Virus record (IMG/VR): IMGVR_UViG_3300030688_000011
Source: an uncultured virus (IMG/VR IMGVR_UViG_3300030688_000011)
Lineage: Duplodnaviria; Heunggongvirae; Uroviricota; Caudoviricetes
Reading direction: 5' to 3' (one strand)
DNA length: 64,000 nucleotides
Under the pieces are notes generated by a model. That model ran no database searches. It was not told the DNA's origin and saw only the letters and a list, made by a program, of their open reading frames with translations. The position numbers were made by a program, and so were the translations under genes. Positions 12,361 through 34,655 of the stretch are shown piece after piece; positions within the stretch are counted from its first letter, which is position 1; every line of letters begins with the position of its first letter.

Positions 12361-13249
12361 GTCAAGGTGATTGTACCACAGTCTTACAAAAGTTCAACCT
12401 CAAGTATCGCCCTCTCGTACTCCTCGACTTCGGAGTGCCAACTCTCAGCGTAGGTCTCCATGATACCACTCTTGGAGTCCGGCCAGTCGCCGTACACTGT
12501 GGTCTCCATCTCATGAGTTGAGATGTCGTCGCCATGACGCTTCAGGTACGTGAGTCGGAGTCGGAACATCACACCTCGATGAGGGCCGATGACTGGTAGG
12601 GTTTGAACTCATCGAAGAATTCGCCTAGTTTCCCTTTGAACTTCTTCGACCGCACCGTGTGATTCCGCCAGTTCACACCGGCCTTCGTCAGACGGATAGC
12701 CGCACATTGAGACCACCACACCATGGGGGAGGGTCGTTTCCCTTAGAGAGAATGTTGCGACAAGCCAACAGGTCGAGGACTAGGCTTCGCTTTGCTTCAC
12801 CAATCTCGGCTGCTGTGTACTTAGGATTTGAGAACACTTGCTTGACCTGACCACGTGGGTACATCTTTCGTGCCATTTTATCTGCCCAGTCTTCCATTTA
12901 TCGCCTACCAGCCTTGGCGTCCCGCTCGGCTCTAAACTCTTGGATGGTCGGGCCGATGTAGCGGACAAGCTTGCGGGTACCATCCTCTTCCCTGACGTAG
13001 AACGCATCGGGAGGGAGTTCCATCAGGGCGTCTTCCAAAGATTTTTGGGTGGACTTCATAGCTTCAAGAGCGTGGACGGCGACGAACACGGTAGCTTCAT
13101 CTTCACTGAAACCGTTGACTGTCGCCATGTCAAAGCACCGTTGTGCGACGTGCTCGGTAGTGCATAGCAACCTGAGTCGTTCACGGTAGCCTTCAAGTAT
13201 ACCGGCCTTCAGAGCGGTGTCCATGGGTTCCATTTGCTCTCCTGAAATA

Positions 13250-13336
13250 TGGTGACCCCGGCAGGATTCGAACCTGCGATGTGCTTTCACACGCGAGTTT
13301 AGGAAACTCGTGCCTTGTCCGCTAGACTACGGGGTC
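13250..13336 (-). tRNA. tRNA-Arg(CCT) with long variable arm
   Basis: GACCCCG/CGGGGTC-ACCA; arm CGAGT-TTCCTAA-ACTCG; 16-nt variable region; TTCGAAT loop. Confidence 0.88.
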
Positions 13337-13569
13337 AAACTTGTATTCTACTCTACAACCAATGCTTCAGGTAGTTGTCTGGGAACTTATTCTTGGAGCG
13401 AACCTCGGTGATGTCCGCTTCCGGGTCGCCCAACTTATCCAGAGCTACCAAGTCTTCAGCCAGACCGGCACGGTGACGGCTGTGAATGAACTTCTTCAGC
13501 CCTGCGGTGTTGCGGCGTTCGCCCTTCTTGCCGCAGCAAAAGTCGGCTCCCATCGCTGGGGGAAACTTC

Positions 13570-13959
13570 TCAGCCTTGAACCCGCGTTGGTGATTCGTCT
13601 TGCTCATCGTCCTCTCCAGCTACTTCCTTGAGCGTATCCATGAAGTCCACCGGCTTCCAGCCAGCCGCTTCCATAATCTCCGGGAACGTACCGTTCGCCT
13701 TCTCCGTGGGAACAACCACCCACTCACATGCACAACCCGGCCACAGGCTGGGGAATATGCCTTGGTTCTCCATCTCCTCGGTCATCTCCACGCCGTCGAG
13801 AGCCGCCTGTCGGTCTTGCTTACACGATCCACACATCCCAGCGAAGATGTACTCTTCTGCTGCTTCTTGAGACTCAAAGCCGGAGCGGGATGGGTTGGGC
13901 TCGTCAGATTCTCGTGCCGGGAGGTACAGTGCGGAAAAATCAGGCATTCGTATCACCAA
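13570..13959 (-). CDS. hypothetical protein
   Basis: ORF with Cys motifs; true start probably ATG near 13948. Confidence 0.55.
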   Translation of the reverse strand: MVIRMPDFSALYLPARESDEPNPSRSGFESQEAAEEYIFAGMCGSCKQDRQAALDGVEMTEEMENQGIFPSLWPGCACEWVVVPTEKANGTFPEIMEAAGWKPVDFMDTLKEVAGEDDEQDESPTRVQG

Positions 13960-14179
13960 TCAGGTACAGGTTATTGTCGCTCGACCCACAAACTGCGATG
14001 CCGTCCAGATACCACTTACACTCTTGAGACCCGATGGTGCCGACCAGCCGGGGGCACTCTTCAAAATCCACCATGTGAAGGCTCGTTACCCTGCGCCCGT
14101 CCATTGTCTCCGCCTCGGTGATCCCTCGTGTCGGCACTACCACCGTACTTACATCTAGGTTATTCATACTAGCTAATAC

Positions 14180-14262
14180 TGGAGGGCGCGACAGGATTCG
14201 AACCTGCATTTTCAATTCCACTTACGTTTAACGACTTAGAAGGTCGCCTCGATTACACACCC
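14180..14262 (-). ncRNA. atypical tRNA-like RNA (TCT anticodon arm, no normal D-arm)
   Basis: acceptor GGGTGTG/CGCGCCC-TCCA, T-arm GCAGG-TTCGAAT-CCTGT, arm GCGAC-CTTCTAA-GTCGT placed only 8 nt after the acceptor stem. Confidence 0.7.
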
Positions 14263-14514
14263 CAAAGGTTACGCTGCGATGTCTGTGGTTCTCTCGTTCT
14301 TGGATGACCTTACACACATCTTGGGTGCGTGAGACACGTTGACGAACGTGTCCCACTTCCCTTTGCACGCACACGTGTTGGGGTCTACCTTGTGCTCATC
14401 ATCGCCCAGCAAGTCCTGCAACTTGGTCTGGCCGAAGAGCATACGTACGATAGGTGTGATAAACATATGTGTTCTCCTGTCAGTTGAATTCGTTTATAAT
14501 GCGTGGATGAAACA

Positions 14515-14736
14515 TCAGGATGCCTTGACGAAGGTCCCGCCATCCAGAGCCTTGCGAATGTACCGCATGAGAGTAATGGCCTTCTCGGTTGAGTTCAAGG
14601 TGGCTCCGCCAATGTCTTCGAGCGAGACGGGAAAGGCATATTCGACGCCATCCACCGTTACGTTGTAAAAGGCGTTACCCGTCCTATAGAACGAAAACCT
14701 TGCGGTGTTGTCCTTCACAATCTTCTTGATGTCCAT
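14515..14736 (-). CDS. small hypothetical protein
   Basis: AGGA RBS; MDIKKIVKDNTARF...LMRYIRKAL. Confidence 0.6.
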   Translation of the reverse strand: MDIKKIVKDNTARFSFYRTGNAFYNVTVDGVEYAFPVSLEDIGGATLNSTEKAITLMRYIRKALDGGTFVKAS

Positions 14737-15052
14737 ATGCTCATCCTTCCTTTCAGTTTGACTACTCAGCCATGCAGCTTTGTCTAGACCTATGCCTCGG
14801 TCTGAGTGGCTTCTAACGATGTCCCTTATCTCCGACACTCATGACTCCTTCAACGTACTGCTCTTGCAGATACCTGTCTACTTCTTGGTCAATCTCAGCC
14901 ATGGACTTCATGATGAACGCTTCGGTTTCGAGGTCACCACGGTTATGGGCTTCAGCCGCCTTGTCCATCATGCTCGACTTTACGTAGGCCCGGATTTCTT
15001 CGAAGAGAGAGATTTTGTTTGCGTCTGCCATACTCTCTAATACGGAGACTCA

Positions 15053-15072
15053 GGGGAGTCTTACGACTCCCC
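15053..15072. terminator. GC-rich hairpin (terminator or processing site)
   Basis: GGGGAGTC-TTAC-GACTCCCC. Confidence 0.5.
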
Positions 15073-15084
15073 CTCGTGATTGCC

Positions 15085-15654
15085 CTAGTGGTCGAGTTCT
15101 ACGTTCCAGTAAGCCCAAGATGCCTTTTCAGCGTACAACCACTGCTGCCACTCAGTCCACTCAGGCCGAATCTGCTTGATGTGGAGTTTGAAATTGAACT
15201 TCGGGTCGTCAACCTTCGGTACGAACGGCTGACGGAGCAGCGGCATACGAGCCTGTTCAGGCGTCATGCCAGCCTTCGCCTTGTTGCAGCGAGAGCAAGC
15301 GGCTACGACGTTAGTCCAGACAGTGATACCACCCTGACACCGGGGCTTGACGTGCTCCACCTGAAACTCCTGAGTGGAGACGTGCTTACCGCAGTATTGG
15401 CAAGTACCCTCGTCACGCATGTAGATGTTGCGACGAGAACACGGAACAGCAAGGCGACGACGCTTGTGCCAAGCGTTCTTTACCTGAATGACACGGGGCA
15501 TACCCATCTCGAAAGAAGGGCTGCGAAGCATCCGCCCACCCTCATCTTCCTTGACGATGTTAGCGCGGTCTTCCCAGTACAGCTTGACCGCATTCTTCCA
15601 ACTCATGAAGCCAACCGGCTTCCAGTTTATGTCCAAAACGAGAGTGTCATTCAT
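15085..15654 (-). CDS. HNH endonuclease (McrA-like)
   Basis: SRRNIYMRDEGTCQYCG...VEHVKPRCQGG..VWTNVVAACSRCNKAK. Confidence 0.88.
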   Translation of the reverse strand: MNDTLVLDINWKPVGFMSWKNAVKLYWEDRANIVKEDEGGRMLRSPSFEMGMPRVIQVKNAWHKRRRLAVPCSRRNIYMRDEGTCQYCGKHVSTQEFQVEHVKPRCQGGITVWTNVVAACSRCNKAKAGMTPEQARMPLLRQPFVPKVDDPKFNFKLHIKQIRPEWTEWQQWLYAEKASWAYWNVELDH

Positions 15655-15747
15655 AGAACGCTCCTATCACCTAATGCTGTTTCATGTTGTCCCCCTTGCA
15701 CGGGTGGGTTCTCGCGAACCCTTCTTCGGATGGTGTTGCAACTACAG

Positions 15748-16179
15748 TCAAACTCTTTCGACGGAAATCAGGTTCCCGCCCTCGAAGACGGCATTGTACT
15801 CAAACCACTCCGCCTCCGGTACTTCAATCTCATTGCCCTCGTCATCCCTCGTGGTGGTCTTGCCTTCCGCGAAGTTGACGAAGAATAGCATCCCGCTATT
15901 TGCATCGCCGTAAAAGTTCAAGGTGCCGGTAAAGTCTACGAGGCCCCAGCAGATGTGAATCCGGGTCATGCATCCGACCAGCTTCATCAAGCCTTCGGCG
16001 TTCGGGTCGGAACGGTCTTCAACGTCGTAGTCCGATAGCACCAACTGGCCTTGCTCAGTAATCTGGTAGTCGTCAAAGAACCCAAGGTCAACCAAGCTCT
16101 TCGTCTGGAACTCTATACCAGAGGGGTCGGGCAATCCCGGTAGTGGGTACTCGCAACGTATTTTATCATACATACCCAT
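15748..16179 (-). CDS. hypothetical phage protein
   Basis: MGMYDKIRCEYPLP...EFQTKSL...EYNAVFEGG. Confidence 0.65.
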   Translation of the reverse strand: MGMYDKIRCEYPLPGLPDPSGIEFQTKSLVDLGFFDDYQITEQGQLVLSDYDVEDRSDPNAEGLMKLVGCMTRIHICWGLVDFTGTLNFYGDANSGMLFFVNFAEGKTTTRDDEGNEIEVPEAEWFEYNAVFEGGNLISVERV

Positions 16180-16186
16180 AAGTTTT

Positions 16187-16262
16187 TGGTGCAGACGGTG
16201 GGAGTTGAACCCACAACCATTCGATTAAGAGTCGAGTGCTCTGCCAGTTGAGCTACGTCTGC
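16187..16262 (-). tRNA. tRNA-Lys(CTT)
   Basis: canonical cloverleaf, loop CTCTTAA, encoded CCA. Confidence 0.92.
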
Positions 16263-16279
16263 GTCTCCTACTATAGGGT

Positions 16280-16718
16280 CTAAAAGCTTTCAATTCGTTC
16301 AACCACGTCGCTGTCCCAAATGCATCCACTAGCACAGTCCCACGTGTAATACCACATCATAGACAGCCGGTGCCGCCGCTGGTACGGGGCGATGATGATG
16401 CCCTGATACTTGGCTGCTACCTTCTTCCATTCAATACCCGTTGCACTGGGAAACTGTAAGGAAGTAAATCGGTAATTCTCAGCAAAATCTTCTAGCTGGG
16501 ACTCGGTGGAGATGTGGAGGATGTTGGCGTCAGGCTTGAGTACGACCCTATGCACCAGCTTACCGATACCAAAATCCTCCGCAGCACACCAACTGGCCCA
16601 GTCATGTTCGCCCTGCACCGAAACCCAAAGCGGGTTTATACTGCCAGCCTTCCCCATCTAGTTGCTTCCGCGACCATACATTCAGGAGAGGTTGATTGCT
16701 GTGGTGCAGAAGAATCAT
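16280..16718 (-). pseudogene. hypothetical protein, apparently frameshifted near 16630
   Basis: RBS+ATG at 16718 (MILLHHS...YKP) is out of frame with the LWVSVQGEHDW...WDCASGCIW body. Confidence 0.45.
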
Positions 16719-16725
16719 GACATCC

Positions 16726-17574
16726 TCAGAAATCGTTGTCGAGTGGAGGAAGAACTTCCGCTCTCGCCAACCTCTCTTGTCTCCAAGAGTTTATCATGCC
16801 CTCAAGTGCTCTTACAACAGAATTCATGTCGCACTTGTAGAACCCCGCACTCGCCGTCGAGTTCACTTCGAGTACACTACACTCATCGCCGGTTATACTT
16901 ACATCAAGTACATACGTGGCCGAGATGGGTGTCTCTCCAAGCTCCGCCATCCTCTGTGCGAACTGCATCATCGGATAGAAGAATGCGTTGGTGGAGTCTA
17001 TCCTCGCGTACATTACCTCGCCGAAACTACGGTACACACTTCCCGTTACAACCCTGCCGTCCACGACGAAGAATCTTGCCTCGTGGTCAATCGGCTTCGG
17101 TGGTGCGAACATAACCGGGGTGTCTCCTGTGATGGAGCAGTACCCTGTCTTTGCCAGTTCAACGATACGGTCACGCCAAGGCACCATGTCCTCCGGCGTC
17201 ATCAGACCACCGTTGAATACCTTGGTGTCATGCACCGGGCGGACGAACATCGGCTCCGTGAAGTCCATCTCACTGAACTTGCAGTACGTCGCGTCGTGGT
17301 TGAAGAAGTTGCGACCGAACCGTACTCCGTGCTGCTGCATGTCGAACTCAGGGCCTTGAAACGCACCGGGCTTCCAGCCACGCTCAGTAGCGATACGGGC
17401 CAACCCCATCGAGCCCCAGACCATCACATCCTCATCCGGGTCGAAGTCTACCTCTGGCTGCAAATGCTCCCGGACGCTGACGATGGTGTACTTGCTGTCG
17501 TTCGCATCCAATGCGTCGAGCAGCCCTTTGAAACCGAACTCGTTGAACAACCCTGCCTGTACTACGTGCTGCAT
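16726..17574 (-). CDS. ATP-grasp domain protein (DUF4343/R2K-like)
   Basis: MFVRP..DTKVFNG, EARFFVVDGRVVTGSVY, YVLDV......VLEVNST.SAGFY. Confidence 0.8.
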   Translation of the reverse strand: MQHVVQAGLFNEFGFKGLLDALDANDSKYTIVSVREHLQPEVDFDPDEDVMVWGSMGLARIATERGWKPGAFQGPEFDMQQHGVRFGRNFFNHDATYCKFSEMDFTEPMFVRPVHDTKVFNGGLMTPEDMVPWRDRIVELAKTGYCSITGDTPVMFAPPKPIDHEARFFVVDGRVVTGSVYRSFGEVMYARIDSTNAFFYPMMQFAQRMAELGETPISATYVLDVSITGDECSVLEVNSTASAGFYKCDMNSVVRALEGMINSWRQERLARAEVLPPLDNDF

Positions 17575-17977
17575 ATCTTCCCTTCCAACTCTTGAAACCT
17601 TTCCCACTTCGGGCCGTTGTAAATGAGATGGTAGCCACCCCACATGCCCAGAACTTGAAGTCCGTAATACTCTAAGGTCTCTTCCTTGCTGAGACCCGGC
17701 AGCGGATACGTTGGGGTCTCCCGTACGTATTCTTCACTCATCAGTCTTATCCTCGGAAGCGTCTTCCGTCCATTGCACTGAAGCTCGTTCCACATTCAAC
17801 GATAGCCCGTCGAGAAACAACATTACCTCGCTCCTTAGTTCCGCAGAGTCGAAGCGGTCGTACTTGTCCGAGACATCCAGCGTTAGGGTAAACTTTCTCA
17901 TAGTGATAGATACGTCACTTTCTTCCTTCAAACATGCAAAAAGTGAGATTGCTCTCACTCCTTGGTCGAACAAAACT

Positions 17978-18052
17978 TGGCTCCCAGTGAGGGACTCGAA
18001 CCCCCAACCATACGGTTAACAGCCGTAAGCTCTGCCATTGAGCTAACTGGGA
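17978..18052 (-). tRNA. tRNA-Asn(GTT)
   Basis: TACGG-CTGTTAA-CCGTA; G73-CCA. Confidence 0.92.
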
Positions 18053-18348
18053 ACATCTCTTTGCGGGGCAGACATTGAACCTGCGACCTCTCGGTTAGCC
18101 TCCGACATCTAGGCACCCGCAATCCTTTTGACCCACTTCTTTTCCTTGTCGTTCCATACTCTACGCTTAGAGTACCAACCGGAACGGAAGTGCATCACTA
18201 TTACTGTCATCCCCCAGTGGCGTGTACCCAGCCATCCGATGAGGGTAAGAAACAGTCCGTCGATGAAGTCTACTACATCCTCGGGTTGACGTAACTGTCT
18301 CAACATATCTTGGTTGCGGAGGTTGGGTTGGATGTCTTACCACATTTT

Positions 18349-18425
18349 TGGTTGGGAGAGCAGGGATCGAACCTGCAAACCTCTCGGGTCAGAACCGAGT
18401 GTTCTACCAATTGAACTATCTCCCA
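18349..18425 (-). tRNA. tRNA-Gln(CTG)
   Basis: CTCGG-TTCTGAC-CCGAG; U1-A72; CCA. Confidence 0.9.
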
Positions 18426-18432
18426 ATAACTT

Positions 18433-18509
18433 TGGTACCTCGGGTCGGATTTGAACCGACGATTTCCTCCTTATGAGAGAGGCGTCTTAGACCGCTGGAC
18501 GACCGAGGC
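18433..18509 (-). tRNA. tRNA-Met/Ile2(CAT)
   Basis: CCTCT-CTCATAA-GGAGG; CCA; Met vs Ile2 not resolved. Confidence 0.88.
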
Positions 18510-18510
18510 A

Positions 18511-19197
18511 CTACATTACTTGGGCTAAGTCGGTTCCACCTTTAGAGTTCAGACGGACATTGCGTTCCTTAGCCCATGCACTTACAACCTTGGATAACTT
18601 CCTACCCCTGCCCTTACCCATGTTCATCCCCCTATACGTGGGGGTCAGTGAGTGACAATTAGGACAAAGCAACCTACAATTACTATAGCTGTTATTGTAG
18701 CAATCCCCATCTACATGTTCGAGTTCAATTGGAACTGTGAGGGATTTGGGGTTCACTTTACTCCACCCACAGTCCTCGCATTTCCTTCCCCGCTCAATTA
18801 TCAGATAACCTTTGGCTGATCGTTCCGATGGAACTATTACTCCTGACTTCCATTTTACTAGTAGTACAGCCCGTCTTCTATCCCACGACTGCTTCGACTG
18901 TTTCCCTCCCTCCCTCGAAGCACATTTCCTAGAGCAGTGCCTCTGAGACAGCTTACCGTGGGTAAACGAACCGCCACATGTAATACACGTTTTATCATGA
19001 CAACAGGAAGGCTTATTGAGGAGCCCCGATGTATTGCGTCTATCAACAAGTTCTTCCTTACTTAGGGGGTAATCACGTAACCATAAACTGGCAGAACCCT
19101 TGGCTACTCCCAGTCGAAGCGCAATTTCTTTCAATGAAAGCCGATTCTGTACCCTCAGTGTAATTGCTTCATTCTGTTTTTCCATTAATCTTCGCAT
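18511..19197 (-). CDS. HNH homing endonuclease with N-terminal HTH
   Basis: SLKEIALRLGVAKGSASLWL; KCEDCG...ELEHVDG...N...LLCPNCHSLT. Confidence 0.85.
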   Translation of the reverse strand: MRRLMEKQNEAITLRVQNRLSLKEIALRLGVAKGSASLWLRDYPLSKEELVDRRNTSGLLNKPSCCHDKTCITCGGSFTHGKLSQRHCSRKCASREGGKQSKQSWDRRRAVLLVKWKSGVIVPSERSAKGYLIIERGRKCEDCGWSKVNPKSLTVPIELEHVDGDCYNNSYSNCRLLCPNCHSLTPTYRGMNMGKGRGRKLSKVVSAWAKERNVRLNSKGGTDLAQVM

Positions 19198-19267
19198 TTG
19201 AACCCCCTATAAGAGGTATGCGATAGTCGAAAAACCAGCATGACTAACCTACTGTAGGTACAAATTA

Positions 19268-19343
19268 TGGTGGGGCCGTTCGGCATCGAACCGAAATCTC
19301 ACCGCTTAAAAGGCGGGACTCTAGCCATTTGAGTTACAACCCC
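19268..19343 (-). tRNA. tRNA-Lys(TTT)
   Basis: CCGC-CTTTTAA-GCGG; CCA. Confidence 0.88.
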
Positions 19344-19384
19344 GAATTTGGGCAAACGTTTCATATAGTTCCTTTGCAAAACTT

Positions 19385-19461
19385 TGGTGCGCCGGGGTGG
19401 ATTCGAACCACCGTCATCTCGGGTAAGGGCCGAGTATAATAATCCGCTATACGACCGACGC
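19385..19461 (-). tRNA. tRNA with CTT anticodon (Lys), unusual C33/C38 loop
   Basis: CTCGG-CCCTTAC-CCGAG; intact acceptor and T arms; CCA. Confidence 0.8.
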
Positions 19462-19481
19462 AAAACTGGTACATCTAAACT

Positions 19482-19568
19482 TGGTGCGTCCGGAGGGATT
19501 CGAACCCCCGTTGGGAATCTCTCCCGCTGATTAAGAGTCAGGTGCATAAGCCACTCTGCCACGAACGC
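19482..19568 (-). tRNA. tRNA with CTT anticodon on a class II (Leu-like) body
   Basis: D-arm GCA-GAGTGGCTTA-TGC, CTGA-CTCTTAA-TCAG, V-arm GGGA-GAGAT-TCCC, A73-CCA. Confidence 0.85.
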
Positions 19569-19656
19569 ATATCCCTGTAAGCGGTACAATTGTGCCGGAT
19601 ACAGCTAAAACTAGGCTTTATCGGTAACATACTACCGGTATTGCCGACATCAAACT

Positions 19657-19730
19657 TGGCTCGGTCTCAGGGGGTCGAACCCCGGTTTCTAGGGTCAGAA
19701 CCTAGCGTCCTACCACTGAACGAAGACCGA
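19657..19730 (-). tRNA. tRNA-Gln(CTG)
   Basis: CTAGG-TTCTGAC-CCTAG; G73-CCA. Confidence 0.9.
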
Positions 19731-19746
19731 ACATGTGGAACTAAAC

Positions 19747-19845
19747 TGGTGCGGGTGGGGAGATTCTCACGTCCCCGTGGCACCTTACCCTCTGAGCGTC
19801 AAGACGTGAGTGTGTCGCGACTCAGATAGAGGGCACCTACCCCGC
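19747..19845 (-). ncRNA. tRNA-like RNA with CCA end and non-tRNA core
   Basis: GCGGG.../...CCCGC-ACCA; T-arm-like GGGGA-CGTGAGAATC-TCCCC; internal TCTGAG/CTCAGA helix. Confidence 0.6.
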
Positions 19846-19862
19846 ATACTGTGCTACTAAAC

Positions 19863-19953
19863 TGGCTCAGGGGGAGGGACTCGAACCCTCAGAGGGAATG
19901 GCTACCCGCTTGGTTAACAGCCAAGTACGCTGCCAGTTACGTTTTACCCCTGA
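19863..19953 (-). tRNA. tRNA-Asn(GTT) with long variable region and atypical D-arm
   Basis: TCAGGGG/CCCCTGA-GCCA; CTTGG-CTGTTAA-CCAAG; 18-nt variable region. Confidence 0.8.
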
Positions 19954-19974
19954 ACATCTCTGCTACTAAACTTA

Positions 19975-20078
19975 GGCCGACTCTCTCTTCGGCGTCACAC
20001 CACTTCAACTAAGACACATGCCTTCTACGCTTCTAACGTAGGCTTTCATGTACGTTCATCGCCGAAGCGAAACGCCGG
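19975..20078 (-). ncRNA. putative rod-like structured RNA
   Basis: nested helices CCGGC/GTCGG, CTTCGGCG/CGCCGAAG, TACATG/CATGTG, CTACG/CGTAG; flanked by the TGCTACTAAAC spacer repeat. Confidence 0.5.
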
Positions 20079-20190
20079 GTAGGTGTCACCCTTCTTGTGC
20101 TACTAAACCGGGAGGGCTTGGGATTTCACGAACGTTCCACAGACGGGAGCTACCCGCCAGATGTCTATCCGTCCCTCTTAGTCCCTTTCG

Positions 20191-20258
20191 TTCACTTGGC
20201 GGGAGTCGAACCCGCATCAGCCGCCAACGCGGCTGCTCTACCATTGAGCTACAAGCAA
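20191..20258 (-). ncRNA. tRNA-like RNA without an anticodon loop
   Basis: normal D-arm GCTC-AATGGTA-GAGC and T-arm GCGGG-TTCGACT-CCCGC, but arm GCCGC-GTTG-GCGGC; no CCA. Confidence 0.65.
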
Positions 20259-20281
20259 CTAAGGAACCTCAACTCAAACTA

Positions 20282-20356
20282 TGGCTGGCAAGGCCGGATT
20301 CGAACCGACACCTTCTCCGGTAACAGCGGAGCATCATACCATTAGACCACTTGCCA
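20282..20356 (-). tRNA. tRNA-Asn(GTT), C38 variant
   Basis: CTCCG-CTGTTAC-CGGAG; G73-CCA. Confidence 0.9.
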
Positions 20357-20360
20357 ACAA

Positions 20361-20670
20361 CTCTCACCCGGTGCTCCCGGACAGCGGACTTACTCAGTTC
20401 CGGTCGAATGGGTACGATGCCGGAACACTGCCTCTGCTGGAGGATTTACACGCATGACCTCCATTGAACTTATCGGGCACTGACTTCTAAAGCTACATCC
20501 GGCCAACGCCGCATGGTGACCAACCCTCTCGTCACATCCCCGGATTACGAGTCCGGTGCTTTGTTCAGACTCATCACGTAGGTTCCAGCCCTCGTGAATC
20601 TGTCTAGGTCTAGTCGTGACCAACGGCTGGAACCACTGGTGCCCGAAACCGAGACGGATGTTCTCGCCTC
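20361..20670 (-). ncRNA. unassigned ~310-nt pseudoknotted RNA
   Basis: perfect helices 20581-90/20625-34, 20473-80/20639-46, 20495-501/20655-61 (crossing), 20397-403/20420-26; lies between two tRNAs. Confidence 0.6.
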
Positions 20671-20676
20671 AAAACT

Positions 20677-20752
20677 TGGTGCCCCCGGTAAGAATCGAAC
20701 TCACATCCACGACTTAGAAGGTCGGTGTCCTTGTCCGTTGAACGACGGGGGC
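20677..20752 (-). tRNA. tRNA-Arg(TCT)
   Basis: CGAC-CTTCTAA-GTCG; A20; CCA. Confidence 0.92.
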
Positions 20753-20809
20753 TGTTATCAGGGATTGAACTCAGATCATAAATGAAAATACTATCTGACT
20801 TTAAACCCC

Positions 20810-21460
20810 TTGAGTATGCAAACTAAAACAAAAGTCACTTGCCTAACTTGCCAAGTAGAATTTGAAAAGGCTGAAGCTGAAATCCGTAGATCATCTCCCG
20901 GTCGTAACTTCTGCTCACGTTCCTGCTCAGCCAAACTCCGTCGTGGTCTTCAAAGAAACCCACCAAAACCTCGTACTTGTAAATCCTGCGGGGCTGAGTT
21001 TACATGCTCAACATCCCACCGGTCTTACACCTTCTGCTCCCCATGTTCTGGAAACAAGGAACATCTACTTACTCCCCACCTTCGGCTACGCAAACGCCAC
21101 GGGTCTAATGAGTATATCCGAGTAGACTTCCGCCTTATGACTCTTGAAGAGGCGATGAATTCACCTTATGTAAAAGGCAAGCACCGTAGCCACATCTATG
21201 ATTTCGTCAGGCGGTTCAACCGTTCATGGAACAAACACCTTCTCAAACTACCTTGCTTGTACTGTGGTTATAGTAAGCACAGTGAACTTGCTCACATCAA
21301 AGGCATAAAAACCTTCTCACTTGATTCTACTCTCGGCGAAATCAACAATGTCAGCAACGTCTTACCTCTGTGTCGTAACTGCCACTGGGAGTTTGATAAC
21401 GACCTCCTATCGCTTGAAACCATAAAGTTGGTGCGCCCGAGAGGATTCGAACCTCTGTAG
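20810..21460 (+). CDS. HNH endonuclease with Zn-binding repeats, antisense to tRNA operon
   Basis: FCSRSC; CLYCGYSKH..LAHIK...N...LCRNCHWEFD; 3' end overlaps tRNA-Arg(ACG). Confidence 0.82.
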   Translation: MSMQTKTKVTCLTCQVEFEKAEAEIRRSSPGRNFCSRSCSAKLRRGLQRNPPKPRTCKSCGAEFTCSTSHRSYTFCSPCSGNKEHLLTPHLRLRKRHGSNEYIRVDFRLMTLEEAMNSPYVKGKHRSHIYDFVRRFNRSWNKHLLKLPCLYCGYSKHSELAHIKGIKTFSLDSTLGEINNVSNVLPLCRNCHWEFDNDLLSLETIKLVRPRGFEPL

Positions 21461-21517
21461 AGAACTCTCGTTCAACAGATTCGTAGTCTGGTGCCTCATC
21501 CGCTAGGCTACGGGCGC
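21429..21517 (-). tRNA. tRNA-Arg(ACG) with long variable arm
   Basis: CAGA-CTACGAA-TCTG; V-arm GAAC-GAGA-GTTC; A20; CCA. Confidence 0.88.
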
Positions 21518-21526
21518 ATATATTTT

Positions 21527-21797
21527 GCACATCCTGTTCGTAGCAGGTAAAGGCAAGTACTGTGCCTTGTTCTTAGGATGTGGGCGAGAATGCTGAACTC
21601 CCTGTCCACCCCTCCCGGCCTTTCAACCGAGAGCATCCTGATTGCTCGGAACCTTTTCCAGTGTCGTCGCGACGACCCACTTGCAAGTGGTGAAGGTATC
21701 GAACCTCCTCGGAACCGTCTTGGCTTGTGCGGCCAGCATTTACTGACATATCCGGGCTATCACGCCCGATGAGGCACATCGCCTCCCCTTTCACACA
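21527..21797 (-). ncRNA. unassigned ~270-nt structured RNA with T-loop-like hairpin
   Basis: helices 21528-35/21575-82, 21589-95/21734-40, CCACTT/AAGTGG, GTCGTC/GACGAC, GGAGG-TTCGATA-CCTTC. Confidence 0.55.
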
Positions 21798-21803
21798 AAG
21801 ACT

Positions 21804-21893
21804 TGGTGTACCCGGCAGGACTCGAACCTGCATGAGACTTTCGTCAGCCCACCTTCGGAGGGTGGCGGCTAATCCAATTCACACCACGGGTAC
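21804..21893 (-). tRNA. tRNA-Arg(CCG) with long variable arm
   Basis: CCACC-CTCCGAA-GGTGG; V-arm GAC-GAAA-GTC; CCA. Confidence 0.85.
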
Positions 21894-21896
21894 AAA

Positions 21897-22152
21897 ACGA
21901 CGGTGCTTTGCGAAGCTCCTCACCATTCCGTGAGGCAGGGTTGGTTACCCGCGTCTTCCGTCTAACTCAAAAGTAAGGTGGGGGTCTTCACTTCCCGAAC
22001 GTCGTCCGCTACCAGTGTCACAGCCGCCCTAATACTTCCGGCTACGCCTTTGCCTTACTGATGCTTCTAGCATAGGTTCTGGCGGTTGATTCCCTGTACC
22101 AGTTTCCCGGTACCGGTCTTTTATCCCTTGCGGGTACCGCTACGCCCATGCC
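21897..22152 (-). ncRNA. unassigned ~255-nt structured RNA
   Basis: AGTAAGG/CCTTACT (21972-78/22053-59) crossing CCGCCAG/CTGGTAGCGG (22079-85/22006-15); GNRA-capped hairpins; no ORF. Confidence 0.5.
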
Positions 22153-22160
22153 AAAACTTT

Positions 22161-22235
22161 TGGGGGGCAATCCGGGAATCGAACCCGAGTAACCGATGCC
22201 ACAGATCGGCGTTCTGCCACTGAACTAATCGCCCC
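22161..22235 (-). tRNA. tRNA-His(GTG)
   Basis: G-1:C73; CCGAT-CTGTGGC-ATCGG; CCA. Confidence 0.92.
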
Positions 22236-22259
22236 ACATCTTTTCAAAACTTTGCCTTT

Positions 22260-22335
22260 TGGCGGGGGAGCCGGGATTTGAACCCGGAAAAATGGTTTTG
22301 GAGACCATCGGTTTGCCAGTTGAGCCTACTCCCCC
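22260..22335 (-). tRNA. tRNA-Trp(CCA)
   Basis: ATGGT-CTCCAAA-ACCAT; G73-CCA. Confidence 0.92.
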
Positions 22336-22356
22336 CAATTAGTTGTTTCAAATCAA

Positions 22357-22368
22357 TTGTCAAAGATC
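22357..22368 (-). promoter_or_regulatory. boxA-like antitermination element
   Basis: GATCTTTGACAA between the attenuator and the first tRNA; resembles rrn boxA. Confidence 0.6.
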
Positions 22369-22393
22369 GCTTTTGAGCCTGAGCCCTACAACG

Positions 22394-22420
22394 AAAAACC
22401 CTAGCCGCTTTGGCTAGGGT
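22394..22420 (-). terminator. attenuator intrinsic terminator of tRNA operon 1
   Basis: ACCCTAGCC-AAAGC-GGCTAGGGT-TTTT. Confidence 0.88.
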
Positions 22421-22445
22421 CTGTAATTCTAATCTCGGTTGGTGC

Positions 22446-22547
22446 TTAGGTGATTTTCACCCGACCATGAGATAGACACAGACCCGTGCTGCGGCGATTA
22501 TGCTGCTGCCACATGCCCCGCTTCGAATTGGTCTGTTTTAACGTCAT
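22446..22547 (-). CDS. leader peptide 1, MTLKQTNSKRGMWQQHNRRSTGLCLSHGRVKIT
   Basis: AAGGA RBS 8 nt before ATG; overlaps antiterminator strand GGGTCTGT; codons match downstream tRNAs. Confidence 0.8.
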   Translation of the reverse strand: MTLKQTNSKRGMWQQHNRRSTGLCLSHGRVKIT

Positions 22548-22585
22548 GGTAGTTTCCTTGTGCTGCTGTTTTCTGCTTCTCTTAC

Positions 22586-22616
22586 ATAATACCTGATAGT
22601 TCGGAAATTGAAACAA
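22586..22616 (-). promoter_or_regulatory. promoter of tRNA operon 1 (TTGTTT-N19-TATTAT)
   Basis: copy of the repeated promoter motif. Confidence 0.75.
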
Positions 22617-23325
22617 CTATTTTTGATTTATTTGAAAAATCTTTCGTCTGTTCCTCGCCGCTGGGGCCAGCGGTCTTCCGGGTCTTTCGCCACGTCGCTG
22701 ATAACCCGGCCACAGTAGGGACAAGTTTTGGTGATAAACACCCTTGACTCCTGCACATTCGGTAGTACAATGCGGTCGCAGTAGTGGCAGGTCTCGTGGT
22801 CGCATTGCTTCATAGTGTACCTTCGAGGAAGTTGAAGTGTAGGTCTCTGGTATAGTCGTTGTGAGTAATGTACAACGCCCTACCGGAAGACAGGCGGAGA
22901 ACGTACTCCGGCCCATGGCTTCCGTGAAAATCCACACTGGTGATGGTCTCACCCACGAGAGTCTTCAGGGTTTCCTTGCTCATCTGGTTGCGGTCTTCCG
23001 TTTGCAGTAGACTCATAGTAGTTACCTGTTCTTGTAGAGGAAAATACCAAAGGCGATAGCTAGGGGGACGATAATCCACCCACCAAAGTGAGTGAAGGCG
23101 TACCAGTCAAGGTTCCATCGAGCGACGATGTAGTCCCAAGGTGACATTACTTCTTCTCCGCTTCCTTGTCAGCCTTACGTTGAAGAAGCTGAGCCAGCCC
23201 AGCAACGCCAATGTCCAACTTGCCGTTGCTGAGCAGCCCATGCTTCTTGATGAGTTCGTCGGAGTATTCCTCCGTGATGCCGAACCCCTTCACAGCGTAT
23301 TTCGACGCCTTCATCTTCGGAGCCA

Positions 23326-24048
23326 TTAGTAGCGGCCCTTGACACTCGTGACACCGCCACGGTTGACCACGTAACCCTTGTCATCAATTCCAACCGGAAC
23401 ATCCTTCGGCGGCTCAGGCGGGAGCGGCTGGTTCATCTCAGCCACAGCCGTCTTGAACAGGCGGTCGGACATCGACTGAAGCGACGTGGACAGGCTGCGG
23501 TAGATGGCGCGGAAGGCACGGCGCACCGGGTCATTGAGGAGAGTCCACACGCTGGAGAACGGCCAGTAGGTCATCCACATCAGAATGTCGCTCTTGTGGT
23601 CATGCACCTGAGGGGCTTCCCCCTCAATGTAATTGGTGCCCAAGAATTGCTTGAAGCTGGAGACCAACGCAGGAGTTATTTCGGTCGCGTTTTTGCTCCG
23701 CAGGAACCGGTTGCTCCGCAGGAACCGGGCCTTCTTCTCCTTGTACTCTTCCAGCTTCTTGGTCACGTGCAGGAACCACTTGACCACGCCCCATACCGTA
23801 CCGGCGACGAAGTAGAGTGCGACCCCAATCACCACGTTCCACGGATGGTTGAGAACGTACATGGCTGCTGACTTCAGGTGAAGCGAGAAGAGCAAGGTGA
23901 AGCCGATGAGGAGGGTGAAGAAGGCGGCGAAGCCTGAGTCATGTTCAACATAGGCAATGGTGATGATGACGGCGGCTGCGAGGATAATCCATCCCCATGT
24001 GGAGCCGAAGGCTACGGCGGCGAGAAGTGCGATGAAGAATGCTTCCAT
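23326..24048 (-). CDS. membrane protein
   Basis: 4-5 TM segments; WMTYWPFS. Confidence 0.7.
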   Translation of the reverse strand: MEAFFIALLAAVAFGSTWGWIILAAAVIITIAYVEHDSGFAAFFTLLIGFTLLFSLHLKSAAMYVLNHPWNVVIGVALYFVAGTVWGVVKWFLHVTKKLEEYKEKKARFLRSNRFLRSKNATEITPALVSSFKQFLGTNYIEGEAPQVHDHKSDILMWMTYWPFSSVWTLLNDPVRRAFRAIYRSLSTSLQSMSDRLFKTAVAEMNQPLPPEPPKDVPVGIDDKGYVVNRGGVTSVKGRY

Positions 24049-24287
24049 GATGAATTCCTTTCAGTTACCAGAAAATGGTGATGGAGTAGTACCAGCCACC
24101 GGCAGTGCCGGGTGCGTCGGGGGTAGCTCCTTCCAGCAATTCAGGGGGCTGTCGTTGTACTGCTTCTCGTTTTCAGTGAGAGCCTCACCTACCTTGTCTA
24201 CTATCGAGCAGACGGCCAGACCACACATCTCACAGCAGCGGCGGACTGAGCCGAAGGGCTGACCGTTCTGCGTTACCAAGTGGAGGC

Positions 24288-25274
24288 TCATTTTGCCAAT
24301 GACTCCCGCAAATCCTTCAGGAACTGGTTCTGCTGAGCAAGCTGCTTCGCGGACTGAGCCAACTTCTCAGTGTGATACTTCACGTCTTCGTTGGCACTCT
24401 TCAGGGCCGCACGGTAGATGGAGAGAGGAGTGCAACGCTGTGACTCCTTCATCCACTTCTTATTGTCGGTGTCCCAGTGTTCCATCATGGCGTCAGCGAC
24501 CAGCTTGGTTACAGCCTTGCGGTCGCACTCAGGTTGCAGCGGTGAAGCTTCCTCAGCCGCTACGACATCTGCACGTAGTTGGAAGTAAGCTTCGTTCAGT
24601 TTGTCCAGAGACCAGTTTCCCGCACGGATGTCAAGCAGCACATCCACGTTCGGACGCGGGAAGGTCATGCTCCCAGTCTTCAGGAACTCAAGGCACTCGT
24701 CCAGAGAGCGGACAAGGTGCATCCCGGCCTTGGAGTCATAGCCGTGCTCGTTGATGAGTTCGTCACGCTGCCCGTGCTTGCCCGAACCCGACAGGCCGTT
24801 GATGCGTTCGTACTGGGACTTCGCCAGACCAAGGAAGGCCGACGCATGACCGGACGCGAGGAACAGATGCTTGTTGGGCAGGATGTACTTGTCCCATACA
24901 CTGGGATGGGTCACGAAGCTGTCCTTGATGGCGTCAGGCACGAAGAGGTAGCTGAGGATGGTTGGGTTGCCCTTGAGGGCGAGACCTGCCCAACGCCGAA
25001 GGCTGTACACCTTCAGGTCAACATCGCCTACCTTGTTCTTCTGGCTGTCAGGAGACGTGGTGATGGTAACGTGCCCGTCCTTCTTTGGGTCTTCGTTGCC
25101 GATGGTGAGTTCCTGTGCTGGGGTTCCGATGAAGACACCGGCCACGTCAAGGTCAGACTTACCCTCGATACGTGCCCCATGCTGGTACGAGCCTGACGCG
25201 AACGCCATGATGATGCGGTTCAGCCTCAGCTTTTCGCTGTTCAGTACATGACCGACTAGCTCACCGTTAAACAT
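24288..25274 (-). CDS. RlaP-like Pol-beta family nucleotidyltransferase
   Basis: GSYQHG...SDLDVAGVF, KGNPTILSYLF, GYDSKAGMHLVR, FPRP. Confidence 0.8.
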   Translation of the reverse strand: MFNGELVGHVLNSEKLRLNRIIMAFASGSYQHGARIEGKSDLDVAGVFIGTPAQELTIGNEDPKKDGHVTITTSPDSQKNKVGDVDLKVYSLRRWAGLALKGNPTILSYLFVPDAIKDSFVTHPSVWDKYILPNKHLFLASGHASAFLGLAKSQYERINGLSGSGKHGQRDELINEHGYDSKAGMHLVRSLDECLEFLKTGSMTFPRPNVDVLLDIRAGNWSLDKLNEAYFQLRADVVAAEEASPLQPECDRKAVTKLVADAMMEHWDTDNKKWMKESQRCTPLSIYRAALKSANEDVKYHTEKLAQSAKQLAQQNQFLKDLRESLAK

Positions 25275-31529: not shown

Positions 31530-32249
31530 TTGAACTACGTAGGTCTTATACAGGAGCCCTACACCATGACACTCGTAACCCTCATTTGTTCGAAATGTGG
31601 TAAAGAATTCGAAAGACCACTGAAAACTCACAACCGTAATTTACGTTTAGGCTACACGACGGCCCAGTGCAGTGCGACCTGTCAAGTGGAACACCTCCGC
31701 CCAAAACCATGTGAACATTGTGGAAACACCACAACTAATCCAAGATTTTGTTCATCTAGATGTAATGCTTTAGCTACCTCCAAGTTCAAACCAAAACGGC
31801 CAAAACTTGGTCATTGCCGAGTATGTGGTGACTCAATCAGTAGCCAGAGAGTATATTGCAAGACTTGTAGAAAACTAGCGGTTTCCAATTCTAAAGATTG
31901 GTCGGGGGTGACATTAGGGGAATTACGTATCAAAAGAAAAGCTAATGGGGACGCTACTGTTTGGGCACACGCCAAAAGGGTGTTTTTCGCCTCCCCTCTA
32001 CCGAAAGAATGTTGGATATGCGGATACTTTAAGCATATCGACGTGTGTCACATCAAGCCTGTGGCTGGGTTTGCGGATGCCACACTTATCTGTGAGATAA
32101 ATAACCTGAAAAACCTAATGGGTCTTTGTCGTAATCATCATTGGGAGTTCGATCATGGACAGCTATCCAAAGAGGATAAAGAAAAATTGGTACTCCCGGT
32201 AGGATTCGAACCTACGTCTTGCTCTAATCTGGAGCTAAACCGGTTATAA
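31530..32249 (+). CDS. HNH endonuclease with Zn-binding repeats, antisense to tRNA operon 2
   Basis: CWICGYFKHIDVCHIK...INNLKNLMGLCRNHHWEFD; likely start ATG 31566; 3' end overlaps tRNA-Ile(TAT). Confidence 0.82.
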   Translation: MNYVGLIQEPYTMTLVTLICSKCGKEFERPLKTHNRNLRLGYTTAQCSATCQVEHLRPKPCEHCGNTTTNPRFCSSRCNALATSKFKPKRPKLGHCRVCGDSISSQRVYCKTCRKLAVSNSKDWSGVTLGELRIKRKANGDATVWAHAKRVFFASPLPKECWICGYFKHIDVCHIKPVAGFADATLICEINNLKNLMGLCRNHHWEFDHGQLSKEDKEKLVLPVGFEPTSCSNLELNRL

Positions 32250-32282
32250 GGCGGTTGCGTTAGACCACTACGCTACGGGAGC
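32188..32282 (-). tRNA. tRNA-Ile(TAT) with long variable arm
   Basis: ACCG(C)-CTTATAA-(C)CGGT; V-arm GCTC-CAGATTA-GAGC; CCA. Confidence 0.85.
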
Positions 32283-32292
32283 CTAAGCTTTT

Positions 32293-32379
32293 TGGTAGCG
32301 GCGGAGGGATTCGAACCCTCATGCCCCGAAGGGCCAGAGATTTTAAGTCTCCTGTGTATACCGTTCCAGCCACGCCGCC
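32293..32379 (-). tRNA. tRNA-Leu(TAA)
   Basis: GGAGA-CTTAAAA-TCTCT; class II; A73-CCA. Confidence 0.92.
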
Positions 32380-32720
32380 ATATTTATTCAATTGGAGTTG
32401 GGTATTCGTAAGCGGGTTGTGAAAGCGGTGTTCATTCTTTGAATCCTGTCCTTGTGCGTAGTGGAATCGACTTCGGTTGCGGCGGGTTCTCCACCACATG
32501 CTTGAGCCGCTCAGCGAACTCAGCTTCGTACTCTACTTCAGCTTCCTTGACCTTAGCCAATAACTCAGGGTCACTCGGCTCAGTCTTCACATAGGCGGCG
32601 AGAAGCTTGAGGAACTTTGTCCTCGCTTCCTTCACCGGCTCGTAGCTGTTCAACTGATCTACTTGCTCATCGGAAATTTGGCCTTCGTTCATCTAACCCA
32701 ATACTCCCAATTTGAAATGT

Positions 32721-32797
32721 TGGTGCGCCCTCTCGGGCTTGAACCGAGAACCCCCGCGTTATGAGCACGTCGCTCTGACCAATTGAGCTAAGGGCAC
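32721..32797 (-). tRNA. tRNA-Ile2/Met(CAT), probably Ile2
   Basis: GTGCCCTTAGCTC..., CGTG-CTCATAA-CGCG; CCA. Confidence 0.88.
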
Positions 32798-33133
32798 TAA
32801 TCTTCATCATACTCGAAATACCCGGCCACGTTACAAATGGCTTCGATGAACTCGTAAGCGTTCTCAATCACCCGGTCGGACTGGTACACCGCTTCAGAGC
32901 ACACAATCTTCTGGTCAGCGATGAACTTCTCAGCGATTTGTAGAACTCTTTCAGCCTTCTCTTCGCGGGTCATACGTTCCTATAAACATGCACATCCGGT
33001 CAGGGTTCAATCCACGTCGCCTTGCGGCAGTTCCCCGTACCCAACTGAGGGTTCTTCTCACCAGAAAGCCAAGTACCCGTCGATGCTTGGTAGTATCAGT
33101 CTTGCCTGACTGCTTCACGGCGTATGTACAAAC

Positions 33134-33226
33134 TGGAGGAAGGTGTCGGATTCGAACCCACGGTGCCTATCACTAGGACACTCTAGTTTTCAAGACTAGC
33201 GCAATCGACCGCTCTGCCAACCTTCC
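33134..33226 (-). tRNA. tRNA-Ser(TGA)
   Basis: CTAGT-CTTGAAA-ACTAG; long V-arm; U73-CCA. Confidence 0.92.
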
Positions 33227-33433
33227 CAAACTTTTATTTCCTAGTGTAGACAATGCTCAACTGCGGGTCATTGTCCTTGACAACTGCCATCAAGAGCCCA
33301 CCGTACCTGCTCTTGTAATACTTGACTGCCTTCGTATCCGAAGGGAACTCCTGTGCTGGAATCTGCTCATTGAACAGATGACCGTCGCACTCGGGATAGT
33401 ACAGTTCGCTCATGCAATACCTTTCATAAATTT

Positions 33434-33521
33434 TGGCGGAGGCGGAGGGAGTTCAACCCCCAAGTCCTTGCGGAACGTCCCGTTTCGAGCGGGGTGGGCT
33501 TAGCACATGCCCAACGCCTCC
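33434..33521 (-). tRNA. tRNA-Ser(CGA) with swapped elbow pair
   Basis: CCCG-CTCGAAA-CGGG; D-loop ATGTGCTAA and T-loop TTGAACT. Confidence 0.85.
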
Positions 33522-33526
33522 AATTT

Positions 33527-33612
33527 TGGCGGAGAGTCCGGGGGTCGAACCCGGTCAACCTTGCGGTTGTACAGTTTAGCAAACTGCTGCATTACCGTCC
33601 TGCCCACTCTCC
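33527..33612 (-). tRNA. tRNA-Ser(GCT)
   Basis: GCAGT-TTGCTAA-ACTGT; long V-arm; G73-CCA. Confidence 0.92.
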
Positions 33613-34406: not shown

Positions 34407-34412
34407 GCAAAC

Positions 34413-34518: not shown

Positions 34519-34532
34519 TAAAGCTTACAAGT

Positions 34533-34622: not shown

Positions 34623-34628
34623 AAAACT

Positions 34629-34655
34629 AAAAAGCCACCCGAGTTGGGCGGCTTT
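34629..34655 (-). terminator. attenuator intrinsic terminator of tRNA operon 2
   Basis: AAAGCCGCCC-AACTC-GGGTGGCTTTTT. Confidence 0.88.

Follow-up and report, generated by a model that had tools for sequence, protein, structure and literature searches.

The window analysed here is a 64,000-nucleotide (nt) stretch of DNA from an uncultured peat phage (IMG/VR record IMGVR_UViG_3300030688_000011), and it carries on its minus strand (22636-22391), immediately upstream of 17 transfer RNA (tRNA) genes, a leader region that we refer to as unit 1. Judged from its sequence, unit 1, which has five counterparts elsewhere in this phage, is likely to control a tRNA operon by ribosome-mediated transcription attenuation through a leader peptide. 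The assignment draws on the anatomy of the unit, the match between its leader codons and the downstream anticodons, the complementarity between strands of its leader RNA, and conservation and covariation in related phages, all of which are directly observed. Discussion of phage-encoded tRNAs has mostly centred on codon usage or on escape from tRNA-targeting defences, and to our knowledge little has been described of how their expression is controlled. If the assignment is correct, classic leader-peptide attenuation has acquired a new target, with a feedback loop closed on decoding capacity.

All elements of unit 1 lie on the minus strand. The A/T-rich promoter motif of ~58 nt (22579-22636; profile E = 1.5e-10) contains a -10-like hexamer at 22591-22586 and was missed by a generic sigma-70 scan because it has no canonical -35 element. 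A Shine-Dalgarno-like purine run, read directly from the sequence at 22555-22559, is positioned 7 nt upstream of the ATG (22547) of leader open reading frame (ORF) 1, which comprises 33 codons and a TAA stop (22446-22547). Codons 9-19 of this ORF form the putative sensor tract Lys-Arg-Gly-Met-Trp-Gln-Gln-His-Asn-Arg-Arg (22491-22523), in which 10 of the 11 codons are cognate to tRNAs encoded downstream, the Gly codon GGC being the sole one without a matching anticodon. The ORF is followed by an intrinsic terminator with its T run (22391-22422), the stem of which (22422-22396) has 11 pairs, six of them G-C, and a 5-nt loop; tRNA-Trp begins at 22335, 55 nt past the terminator and T run. The original prediction had placed a promoter, a ribosome-binding site, a 33-residue ORF and a terminator directly before the tRNA run, and all of its coordinates were confirmed, as was its count of ten sensor codons read by downstream tRNAs, which we checked against the anticodons present in tRNA cluster 1. 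The occurrence of a promoter, ribosome-binding site, ORF, terminator and codon tract before the tRNA genes is confirmed as real.

The leader RNA can adopt alternative pairings. Region 1 (22530-22536, within codons 4-6) is complementary to region 2, the antiterminator 5' strand (22476-22490, codons 20-24), and region 3, the antiterminator 3' strand (22412-22424), overlaps the 5' arm of the terminator, which is formed by regions 3 and 4. The 8-nt core of region 2 (22485-22478) is complementary both to 22424-22417, which overlaps the terminator 5' arm, and to 22536-22530, a dual complementarity that had been proposed for this site and that is borne out by the sequence. The minimum-energy fold of the 196-nt leader RNA has a free energy of -63.7 kcal/mol (z = -4.64), a stability equalled by 0 of 200 shuffles; in this fold, 22536-22530 pairs with 22485-22478 and the terminator is formed. 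At gathering level, Rfam matches in the window were to tRNAs only, with no leader family (Trp_leader, His_leader, Thr_leader, Leu_leader or others) and no T-box. Within 22340-22640, the highest-scoring leader-type model was rnk_leader, with 16.5 bits where 50 are required, and a search at E values up to 10 returned no T-box.

Codon match between six leaders and six tRNA clusters

The phage genome is represented by a composite of ~320 kilobases (kb) with 56 tRNA genes called by ARAGORN, which was built from two near-identical IMG/VR records, G001 (139,754 base pairs, bp) and G002 (231,108 bp), and covers most of the genome; coordinates above 64000 refer to this composite and not to the window. 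G001 differs from window positions 33803-64000 by 2 mismatches in 30,198 nt. G002 overlaps G001, with positional match lost after an indel and tRNA coordinates shifted by 73 nt, and units 3 and 4 are letter-identical in the two records. Each of the six main tRNA clusters is preceded by a shared promoter motif and then a short ORF, and five of the six by a canonical terminator as well. A promoter profile built from the five minus-strand units matches before the six clusters with E values from 4e-12 to 1e-6, and its matches comprise every tRNA cluster, one tRNA-Met and one protein gene.

The leader codons correspond to the tRNAs that follow them. In leader 1, half of the body codons (16 of 32) are read by cluster 1 tRNAs, whereas codon usage in 168 long ORFs predicts 22.7% (binomial P = 6.6e-4), and the best 12-codon window reaches 10/12; among 1474 ATG-initiated ORFs of 20-45 codons in the composite, 5 are as enriched for the cluster 1 codon set. 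The replication of the unit across six clusters is a stronger argument than these chance tests on leader 1 alone. Own-cluster matches for leaders 1-6 are 16/32, 11/24, 10/28, 6/20, 27/41 and 11/27, respectively, and when every leader is compared with every cluster (6 x 6), each leader scores highest with its own cluster. Furthermore, the true leader-cluster pairing is the best of all 720 permutations, scoring 20.22 as compared with 15.21 for the second best and a median of 3.56. The correspondence extends to synonymous codons, such that the leaders mirror the distribution of isoacceptors split between clusters: CAG occurs in leader 1 only, with Gln-CTG in cluster 1, and CAA in leader 6 only, with Gln-TTG in cluster 6; ATA is confined to leader 2 and ATT to leader 6; and the Leu codons TTA and CTN likewise follow their clusters.

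Unit 2, also on the minus strand of the window, shows a similar organization. Its promoter motif (34772-34830; E = 3.1e-11), with a -10-like hexamer ending at 34778, directly adjoins leader ORF 2 (34694-34771), a frame of 25 codons in which codons 5-16 are Leu(TTA)-Ser-Ile(ATA)-Ser-Ser-Ser-Ser-Thr-Ser-Ser-Ser-Ser. The tRNAs of cluster 2 read 11 of the 24 body codons in leader 2 (P = 2.5e-5), and 11/12 in its best window. The putative antiterminator 5' strand (34702-34715) lies just 3' of the Ser tract, and the intrinsic terminator with its T run (34623-34655; 9-bp stem, 5-nt loop) abuts the tRNA-Ser gene of cluster 2 (32188-34622), which encodes Ser-GGA, Ser-GCT, Ser-CGA, Ser-TGA, Met, Leu-TAA and Ile-TAT. 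No obvious region 1 is present in unit 2. In both unit 2 and unit 4 the ATG is located 6 nt past the -10-like hexamer; leaderless mRNAs are therefore predicted, and the transcripts of the two units are probably of this kind.

The remaining units are located in the composite. In unit 3 (ATG at 132999), the tract Leu-Gly-Leu-Ser-Leu-Tyr-Tyr-Leu-Leu uses the Leu codons CTC, CTA, TTG, CTG and CTT and never TTA, and is followed by two Tyr tRNAs, Leu-TAG, Leu-CAG, Leu-CAA and Leu-GAG. Unit 4 (ATG at 128092) has six Pro and two Phe codons ahead of two Pro tRNAs, Met and Phe. In unit 5 (ATG at 177053), 27 of 41 codons specify Val, Ala, Gly, Glu, Asp or Cys, and exactly those tRNAs follow. Unit 6 (ATG at 254459, plus strand) carries the tract Gln(CAA)-Thr-Arg-Ile(ATT), five Thr codons and then Gln(CAA)-Thr, before two Ile-GAT, three Thr and Gln-TTG tRNAs. 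The tRNA genes are thus sorted into clusters largely by codon family, for example all G-starting codons together with Cys (cluster 5), Ser with Leu-TTA and Ile-ATA, and CTN/TTG Leu with Tyr, and this sorting is kept in the distant relative G004 described below.

Individual units also show features of their own. Unit 4 keeps two mutually exclusive hairpins in both phages (composite 128092-127874; G004 L273 ~6442-6545), and the stop codon of leader 4 is TAG. In unit 6, ~170 nt of very stable hairpins separate the promoter from the leader ATG (composite 254290-254458; -86.8 kcal/mol for a 191-nt stretch), and two or three small ORFs lie between the terminator and the tRNAs; the homologous leader of another relative, G003, abuts tRNA-Ile directly. 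A weaker copy of the promoter motif (63137-63183, minus strand; E = 0.027) lies upstream of a protein gene (62131-63069), and the motif is therefore not exclusive to tRNA operons. A further copy directly precedes a lone tRNA-Met gene (composite ~126170-126218), with neither leader nor terminator; if this is an initiator tRNA, it would be unreadable by an elongation sensor.

Geometry of the proposed switch, conservation and covariation

We modelled the effect of ribosome position on unit 1 with a footprint that extends, from the first base of the codon in the aminoacyl (A) site, over 15 nt in the 5' direction and 12 nt in the 3' direction, and by folding only the RNA 3' of the ribosome. In this model, the terminator probability is ~0.6-0.7 with the A site at codons 2-9, decreases to 0.36 at codon 10 and to 0.06-0.09 at codons 11-14, returns to ~0.6-0.7 at codons 15-17, and rises to 0.75 at codon 18 and to at least 0.93 from codon 19 onward, reaching 0.98 at the stop codon. 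With no ribosome, or with the ribosome at the stop, the modelled value is 0.95-0.98. Folding with and without a ribosome footprint therefore gives distinct outcomes, the terminator being largely lost at codons 11-14 and almost fully formed in the free RNA.

Complementarity between the leader ORF and the terminator was assessed as the most stable duplex that the ORF can form with the 5' arm of the terminator extended by 8 nt, compared with 500 shuffled ORFs. For unit 1, the duplex energy is -17.7 kcal/mol against a shuffled mean of -11.6 +/- 2.3, with 5/500 shuffles as good in this phage and 7/500 in G004. The corresponding values are -19.3 against -10.9 +/- 2.5 kcal/mol for unit 2 (3/500 here and 15/500 in G004), -18.4 against -9.0 for unit 3 (2/500 and 17/500), -22.3 against -15.3 for unit 5 (5/500 and 49/500), and -21.9 against -12.0 for unit 6 (0/500 and 1/500). 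The duplex of unit 4 is not significant (186/500 here and 292/500 in G004). In each significant duplex, the ORF strand reaches its end shortly past the sensor codons, on their 3' side (codon 24, except for codon 40 in unit 5).

Two relatives carry homologous units. G003 (103 kb), found by a terminator-pattern scan, is syntenic with this phage at 64-74% identity in 15 blastn segments and carries homologues of units 5 and 6. G004 (463,033 bp, CheckV 100%) is a distant relative with a complete genome that was found by a scan with the 16-nt promoter core, which is unspecific (at least 120 loci), followed by profile filtering; it carries homologues of all six units, the peptides of which have diverged with their codon classes kept. 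In G004, too, the true pairing outscores every other permutation of the 720 (18.56, second 15.11, median 3.14), so that the enrichment of leader codons for downstream anticodons holds against this control in both phages. The G004 homologue of unit 1 has the tract Arg-Lys-Gln-Trp-Arg-Asn-Arg-Arg-His before genes for Trp, two His, four Arg, Asn, Gln-CTG and Lys tRNAs. In addition, leader 6 of G004 contains CAG as well as CAA and its cluster both Gln-CTG and Gln-TTG, as compared with CAA and Gln-TTG only in this phage, a difference that amounts to codon/anticodon covariation from one phage to the other. The original prediction had named the loss of the upstream ORF and of such covariation in homologues as evidence against itself; both are kept in G004.

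Compensatory changes are found in the helices of the predicted switch. In unit 1 and the corresponding unit of G004, the 2:3 helix has an identical core, and the outer pairs change along with an altered terminator arm. A metagenome scan yielded further unit-5 homologues, and we aligned ten distinct ones, from this phage, G003, G004 and seven metagenome contigs; two more loci (L321 and L323) carry unit-5 homologues and were left out of the alignment. In the antiterminator helix of unit 5, 99% of 100 alignment cells are paired and 2 pairs have changed on both sides, with slid controls at 39-58%. In the terminator helix, 96.7% of 90 cells are paired and 4 pairs have changed on both sides, with slid controls at 31-62%. 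Alignment columns 82 and 84, which belong to both helices, co-vary with both partners, as would be expected of a switch.

Proposed mechanism, alternatives and known systems

We infer translation of the leader, a working terminator and a switch between the two folds that is thrown by ribosome stalling. RNA polymerase, probably that of the host, would initiate at the shared promoter, and a ribosome would translate the 33-codon leader close behind it. Pfam models detected neither a phage RNA polymerase beta (PF00562) nor a sigma-70 region 2 (PF04542) in G001, G002 and G004, although divergent enzymes could escape these models; the result fits host polymerase and intrinsic termination. When charged tRNAs for Lys, Arg, Met, Trp, Gln-CAG, His and Asn are plentiful, the ribosome would move over codons 20-24 and cover region 2, the terminator (22422-22396) would form, and transcription would stop before tRNA-Trp. 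If any of these tRNAs is scarce, the ribosome would stall in the tract and leave region 2 free to pair with 22424-22412, blocking the terminator and allowing transcription of the tRNA genes. Because the products of the operon are the sensed molecules, this would constitute negative (homeostatic) feedback that holds decoding capacity at a set point for each codon family. Candidate sources of a shortage are a host tRNA supply that does not match the codon demand of the phage, decay of host tRNAs, and tRNA-cleaving defences. Host anticodon nucleases may serve as the trigger, and a sensor of this kind would react whenever charged cognate tRNA runs short, whatever the reason.

Several observations weigh against this mechanism. 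The proposal that a stall at any depleted tRNA frees the antiterminator held in the model for A-site codons 11-14, whereas stalls at tract codons 18-19 do not free it. Similarly, the 1:2, 2:3 and 3:4 layout claimed in the original prediction is complete in unit 1 of this phage, and its region 1 has no counterpart in the G004 homologue. Unit 1 is moreover known in that one homologue only, and unit 4 (Pro/Met/Phe) has no canonical terminator or T run in either phage. The paired fraction of the terminator 5' arm, measured in transcripts that end before the 3' arm, is not above that obtained when the spacer is dinucleotide-shuffled (the native value is reached by 53, 55 and 78 of 200 shuffles in units 1-3, respectively), and the fall of this fraction after the tract therefore carries no weight on its own. 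Neither the tRNA-Met with its own promoter nor the cluster with an amber-suppressor-like tRNA has a leader. Cluster 1 spans 9 kb, with endonuclease ORFs breaking it up, and may thus contain internal promoters. Finally, a charged-tRNA sensor would also fire in amino-acid starvation, where extra tRNA is no help.

The leading alternative is that units of the same architecture read overall translation capacity or amino-acid supply and act as a timer or general throttle, for example one that is on early, when ribosomes are slow or scarce. Leader-peptide attenuators that read charged tRNA, such as those of trp, his and thr, do not distinguish starvation from tRNA loss, and the apparently leaderless ORFs 2 and 4 may be translated in a manner that depends on the state of the ribosome pool. 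However, a general throttle needs no six leaders codon-matched to six tRNA sets, a match that is kept in G004, and we regard this alternative as unlikely.

Less probable still is that the small ORFs are fortuitous or untranslated, that the hairpins are ordinary terminators, insulators or processing marks, and that the tRNAs are expressed from other promoters. In this direction point the RNA data, in which no contig falls on the leader, the behaviour of the G/C-rich arms, which in the paired-fraction measure find partners about as readily in random sequence as in the spacer itself, and the number of terminator-like sites in 12500-24500, which as a class are not enriched (9 found against 10.6 expected). 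The unit 1 terminator is the sole minus-strand site among these, and the longest. On the other side, a codon-matched ORF is present at all six clusters with the true pairing best in two phages, the peptides diverge while their composition is kept, and the ATG of two units is placed 6 nt past a -10-like hexamer. Complementarity of the ORF to the terminator arm exceeds that of shuffles in five of six units, the antiterminator helix carries compensatory changes, and the generic scan found no sigma-70-like promoter between the unit 1 terminator and tRNA-Trp.

An equally small chance attaches to the idea that the leaders encode functional micropeptides, or that the released leader RNA acts in trans as a small RNA, with codon composition secondary: all six leaders begin alike (Met, then Lys, Asn, Thr or Arg, with an early Thr or Ser), and trans-acting roles have reportedly been described for the Sinorhizobium trpL peptide and attenuator RNA, but the peptides are poorly conserved between homologous units, the codon classes track the tRNA sets, and a role in trans would add to attenuation rather than replace it.

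Ribosome-mediated attenuation of the tRNA genes, the reading that we prefer, can be placed next to known systems. Multivalent leader attenuators occur in amino-acid operons of enterobacteria, where thrL responds to Thr and Ile and ilvL to Ile, Leu and Val; hisL, leuL, pheL and trpL are further examples of leader attenuators. Unit 1 has in common with them a promoter, a short leader with a run of test codons, an intrinsic terminator and an antiterminator strand just after the run, and in both cases a stalled ribosome frees this strand, or would do so here, and a finishing ribosome covers it, with several amino acids sensed per leader. The features by which leader-peptide attenuators are recognized are seen in unit 1: a predicted ORF with a start signal, codon enrichment, a terminator and an overlapping antiterminator helix. 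By comparison, the genes regulated here would be tRNA genes and not those of biosynthetic enzymes or synthetases, so that what is sensed is also what is made. A single leader represents as many as eight amino acids or codon families, with synonymous-codon specificity; the units are phage-borne, and the six of them partition almost the whole tRNA set; and the 1:2 pause hairpin seen in unit 1 lacks its 5' strand in the G004 homologue.

In the case of pheST, with its pheM leader, and of other aminoacyl-tRNA synthetase genes under attenuator control, leader-peptide attenuation likewise acts on a part of the translation apparatus devoted to the codon being sensed; pheM, however, controls a protein enzyme, responds to a single amino acid and belongs to a cellular genome. 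T-box riboswitches share with the present units a terminator/antiterminator switch that reports the state of a specific tRNA, but the T-box binds uncharged tRNA directly and without translation, whereas here a ribosome on an ORF would be the sensor. In mycobacteria, leaderless polycysteine short ORFs are said to be cysteine-responsive attenuators; the sensing ORF stands at the 5' end of the transcript, as appears to be the case in units 2 and 4, but there cysteine supply is sensed on behalf of downstream protein genes in a bacterium. An attenuator-like leader before pheV of Escherichia coli was considered and ruled out for K-12, which has a promoter directly before the tRNA and no leader ORF.

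The novelty of the arrangement lies in a unit that would work like the trp/his/thr/ilv family while extending its scope to tRNA genes. The original prediction knew of no described attenuator that controls phage tRNA operons, and full-text searches of the literature available without subscription likewise found no description of leader-peptide attenuation of tRNA genes, nor did passages of PMC3082878, in which the leader-peptide attenuation mechanism of pheL is described, and of PMC2965389 contain one. Leader-peptide attenuation of tRNA genes thus appears to be unpublished.

A wider proposal, which we put forward tentatively as a real possibility that falls just short of being favoured, is that huge phages operate a codon-resolved supply-and-demand network, in which tRNA operons are sorted by codon family and each is gated by a multi-codon ribosome sensor. 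Decoding speed would be measured channel by channel, and only tRNA families that run short would be resupplied, including tRNAs destroyed by host anticodon nucleases. If so, tRNA-cleaving defences would be self-defeating against such phages. On the attenuator reading itself, removal of one tRNA should induce one operon, and the design would explain why tRNA genes of huge phages are grouped by codon family. With a length of only ~150-250 nt, the units should transfer readily to reporter constructs or cell-free systems; if confirmed, they could serve as codon-specific sensors of tRNA availability.

The phage, its relatives and tRNA cluster 1

The phage encodes rIIA/rIIB, an NAD-dependent ligase, a nucleotidyltransferase and HNH endonucleases within the tRNA array, and at least half of the sampled words from window positions 20000-24000 were found in 23 peat-metagenome DNA runs. 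No unit-1 homologue was found in the fragmentary relatives G003 and G005-G008, which are 13-58% complete. The first promoter-pattern scan of IMG/VR returned 17 loci, of which the unit-bearing ones are all letter-identical copies of this phage in five records, and a tRNA-Trp pattern scan returned four other contigs, none with a unit-1-like leader. The sequence upstream of unit 1 in this phage showed no tblastx similarity to its G004 counterpart. Compared with 50,697 phage records at the DNA level, 21800-23400 gave only a tRNA-Trp match to Erwinia phage Asesino; a protein-guided locus search of IMG/VR with the nucleotidyltransferase (24288-25274) gave no relatives, and a search with the rIIA protein gave no cultured relative above 34% identity.

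tRNA cluster 1 (13250-22335, minus strand; ARAGORN and Rfam) contains its 17 tRNA genes in the order Trp, His, three Arg, Asn, one odd tRNA, Asn, Gln-CTG, three Lys, Met, Gln-CTG, Asn, Lys and Arg. Two minus-strand HNH homing-endonuclease ORFs lie within the cluster, at 15085-15654 (PHROGs E = 9e-29) and 18511-19197 (PHROGs E = 7e-17). Long spacers separate some of the tRNA genes, at 21894-22160, where stable hairpins occur, and at 20753-21428. In the peat RNA library X24, two exact contigs (20689-20946 and 21098-21302) fall in spacers of this operon and cover the second of the long ones, which weakly suggests transcription of the operon; no X24 contig lies on leader 1 or leader 2, and contigs of this kind cannot reveal transcript starts, ends or attenuation.

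Several tRNA genes are unusual. Arg, Lys, Asn and Ile tRNAs, normally ~76 nt in length, are called by ARAGORN at 87-95 nt (13250-13336, 19482-19568, 19863-19953, 21429-21517, 21804-21893 and 32188-32282), which suggests insertions, long extra arms or introns. The odd tRNA-like gene of cluster 1 (20190-20258) scores 52.6 bits in Rfam and has, according to ARAGORN, an irregular anticodon loop with no assignable anticodon; irregular calls of this type are present in G004 too. Amber-suppressor-like tRNAs with a CTA anticodon are found in all three related phages, in one to three copies (composite 252527-252600; G003 L142 3791-3962; three copies in G004 L271), each time in a single tRNA cluster without a leader, which in G003 and G004 additionally holds Lys-TTT. 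Their presence across the three phages hints at TAG read-through or recoding.

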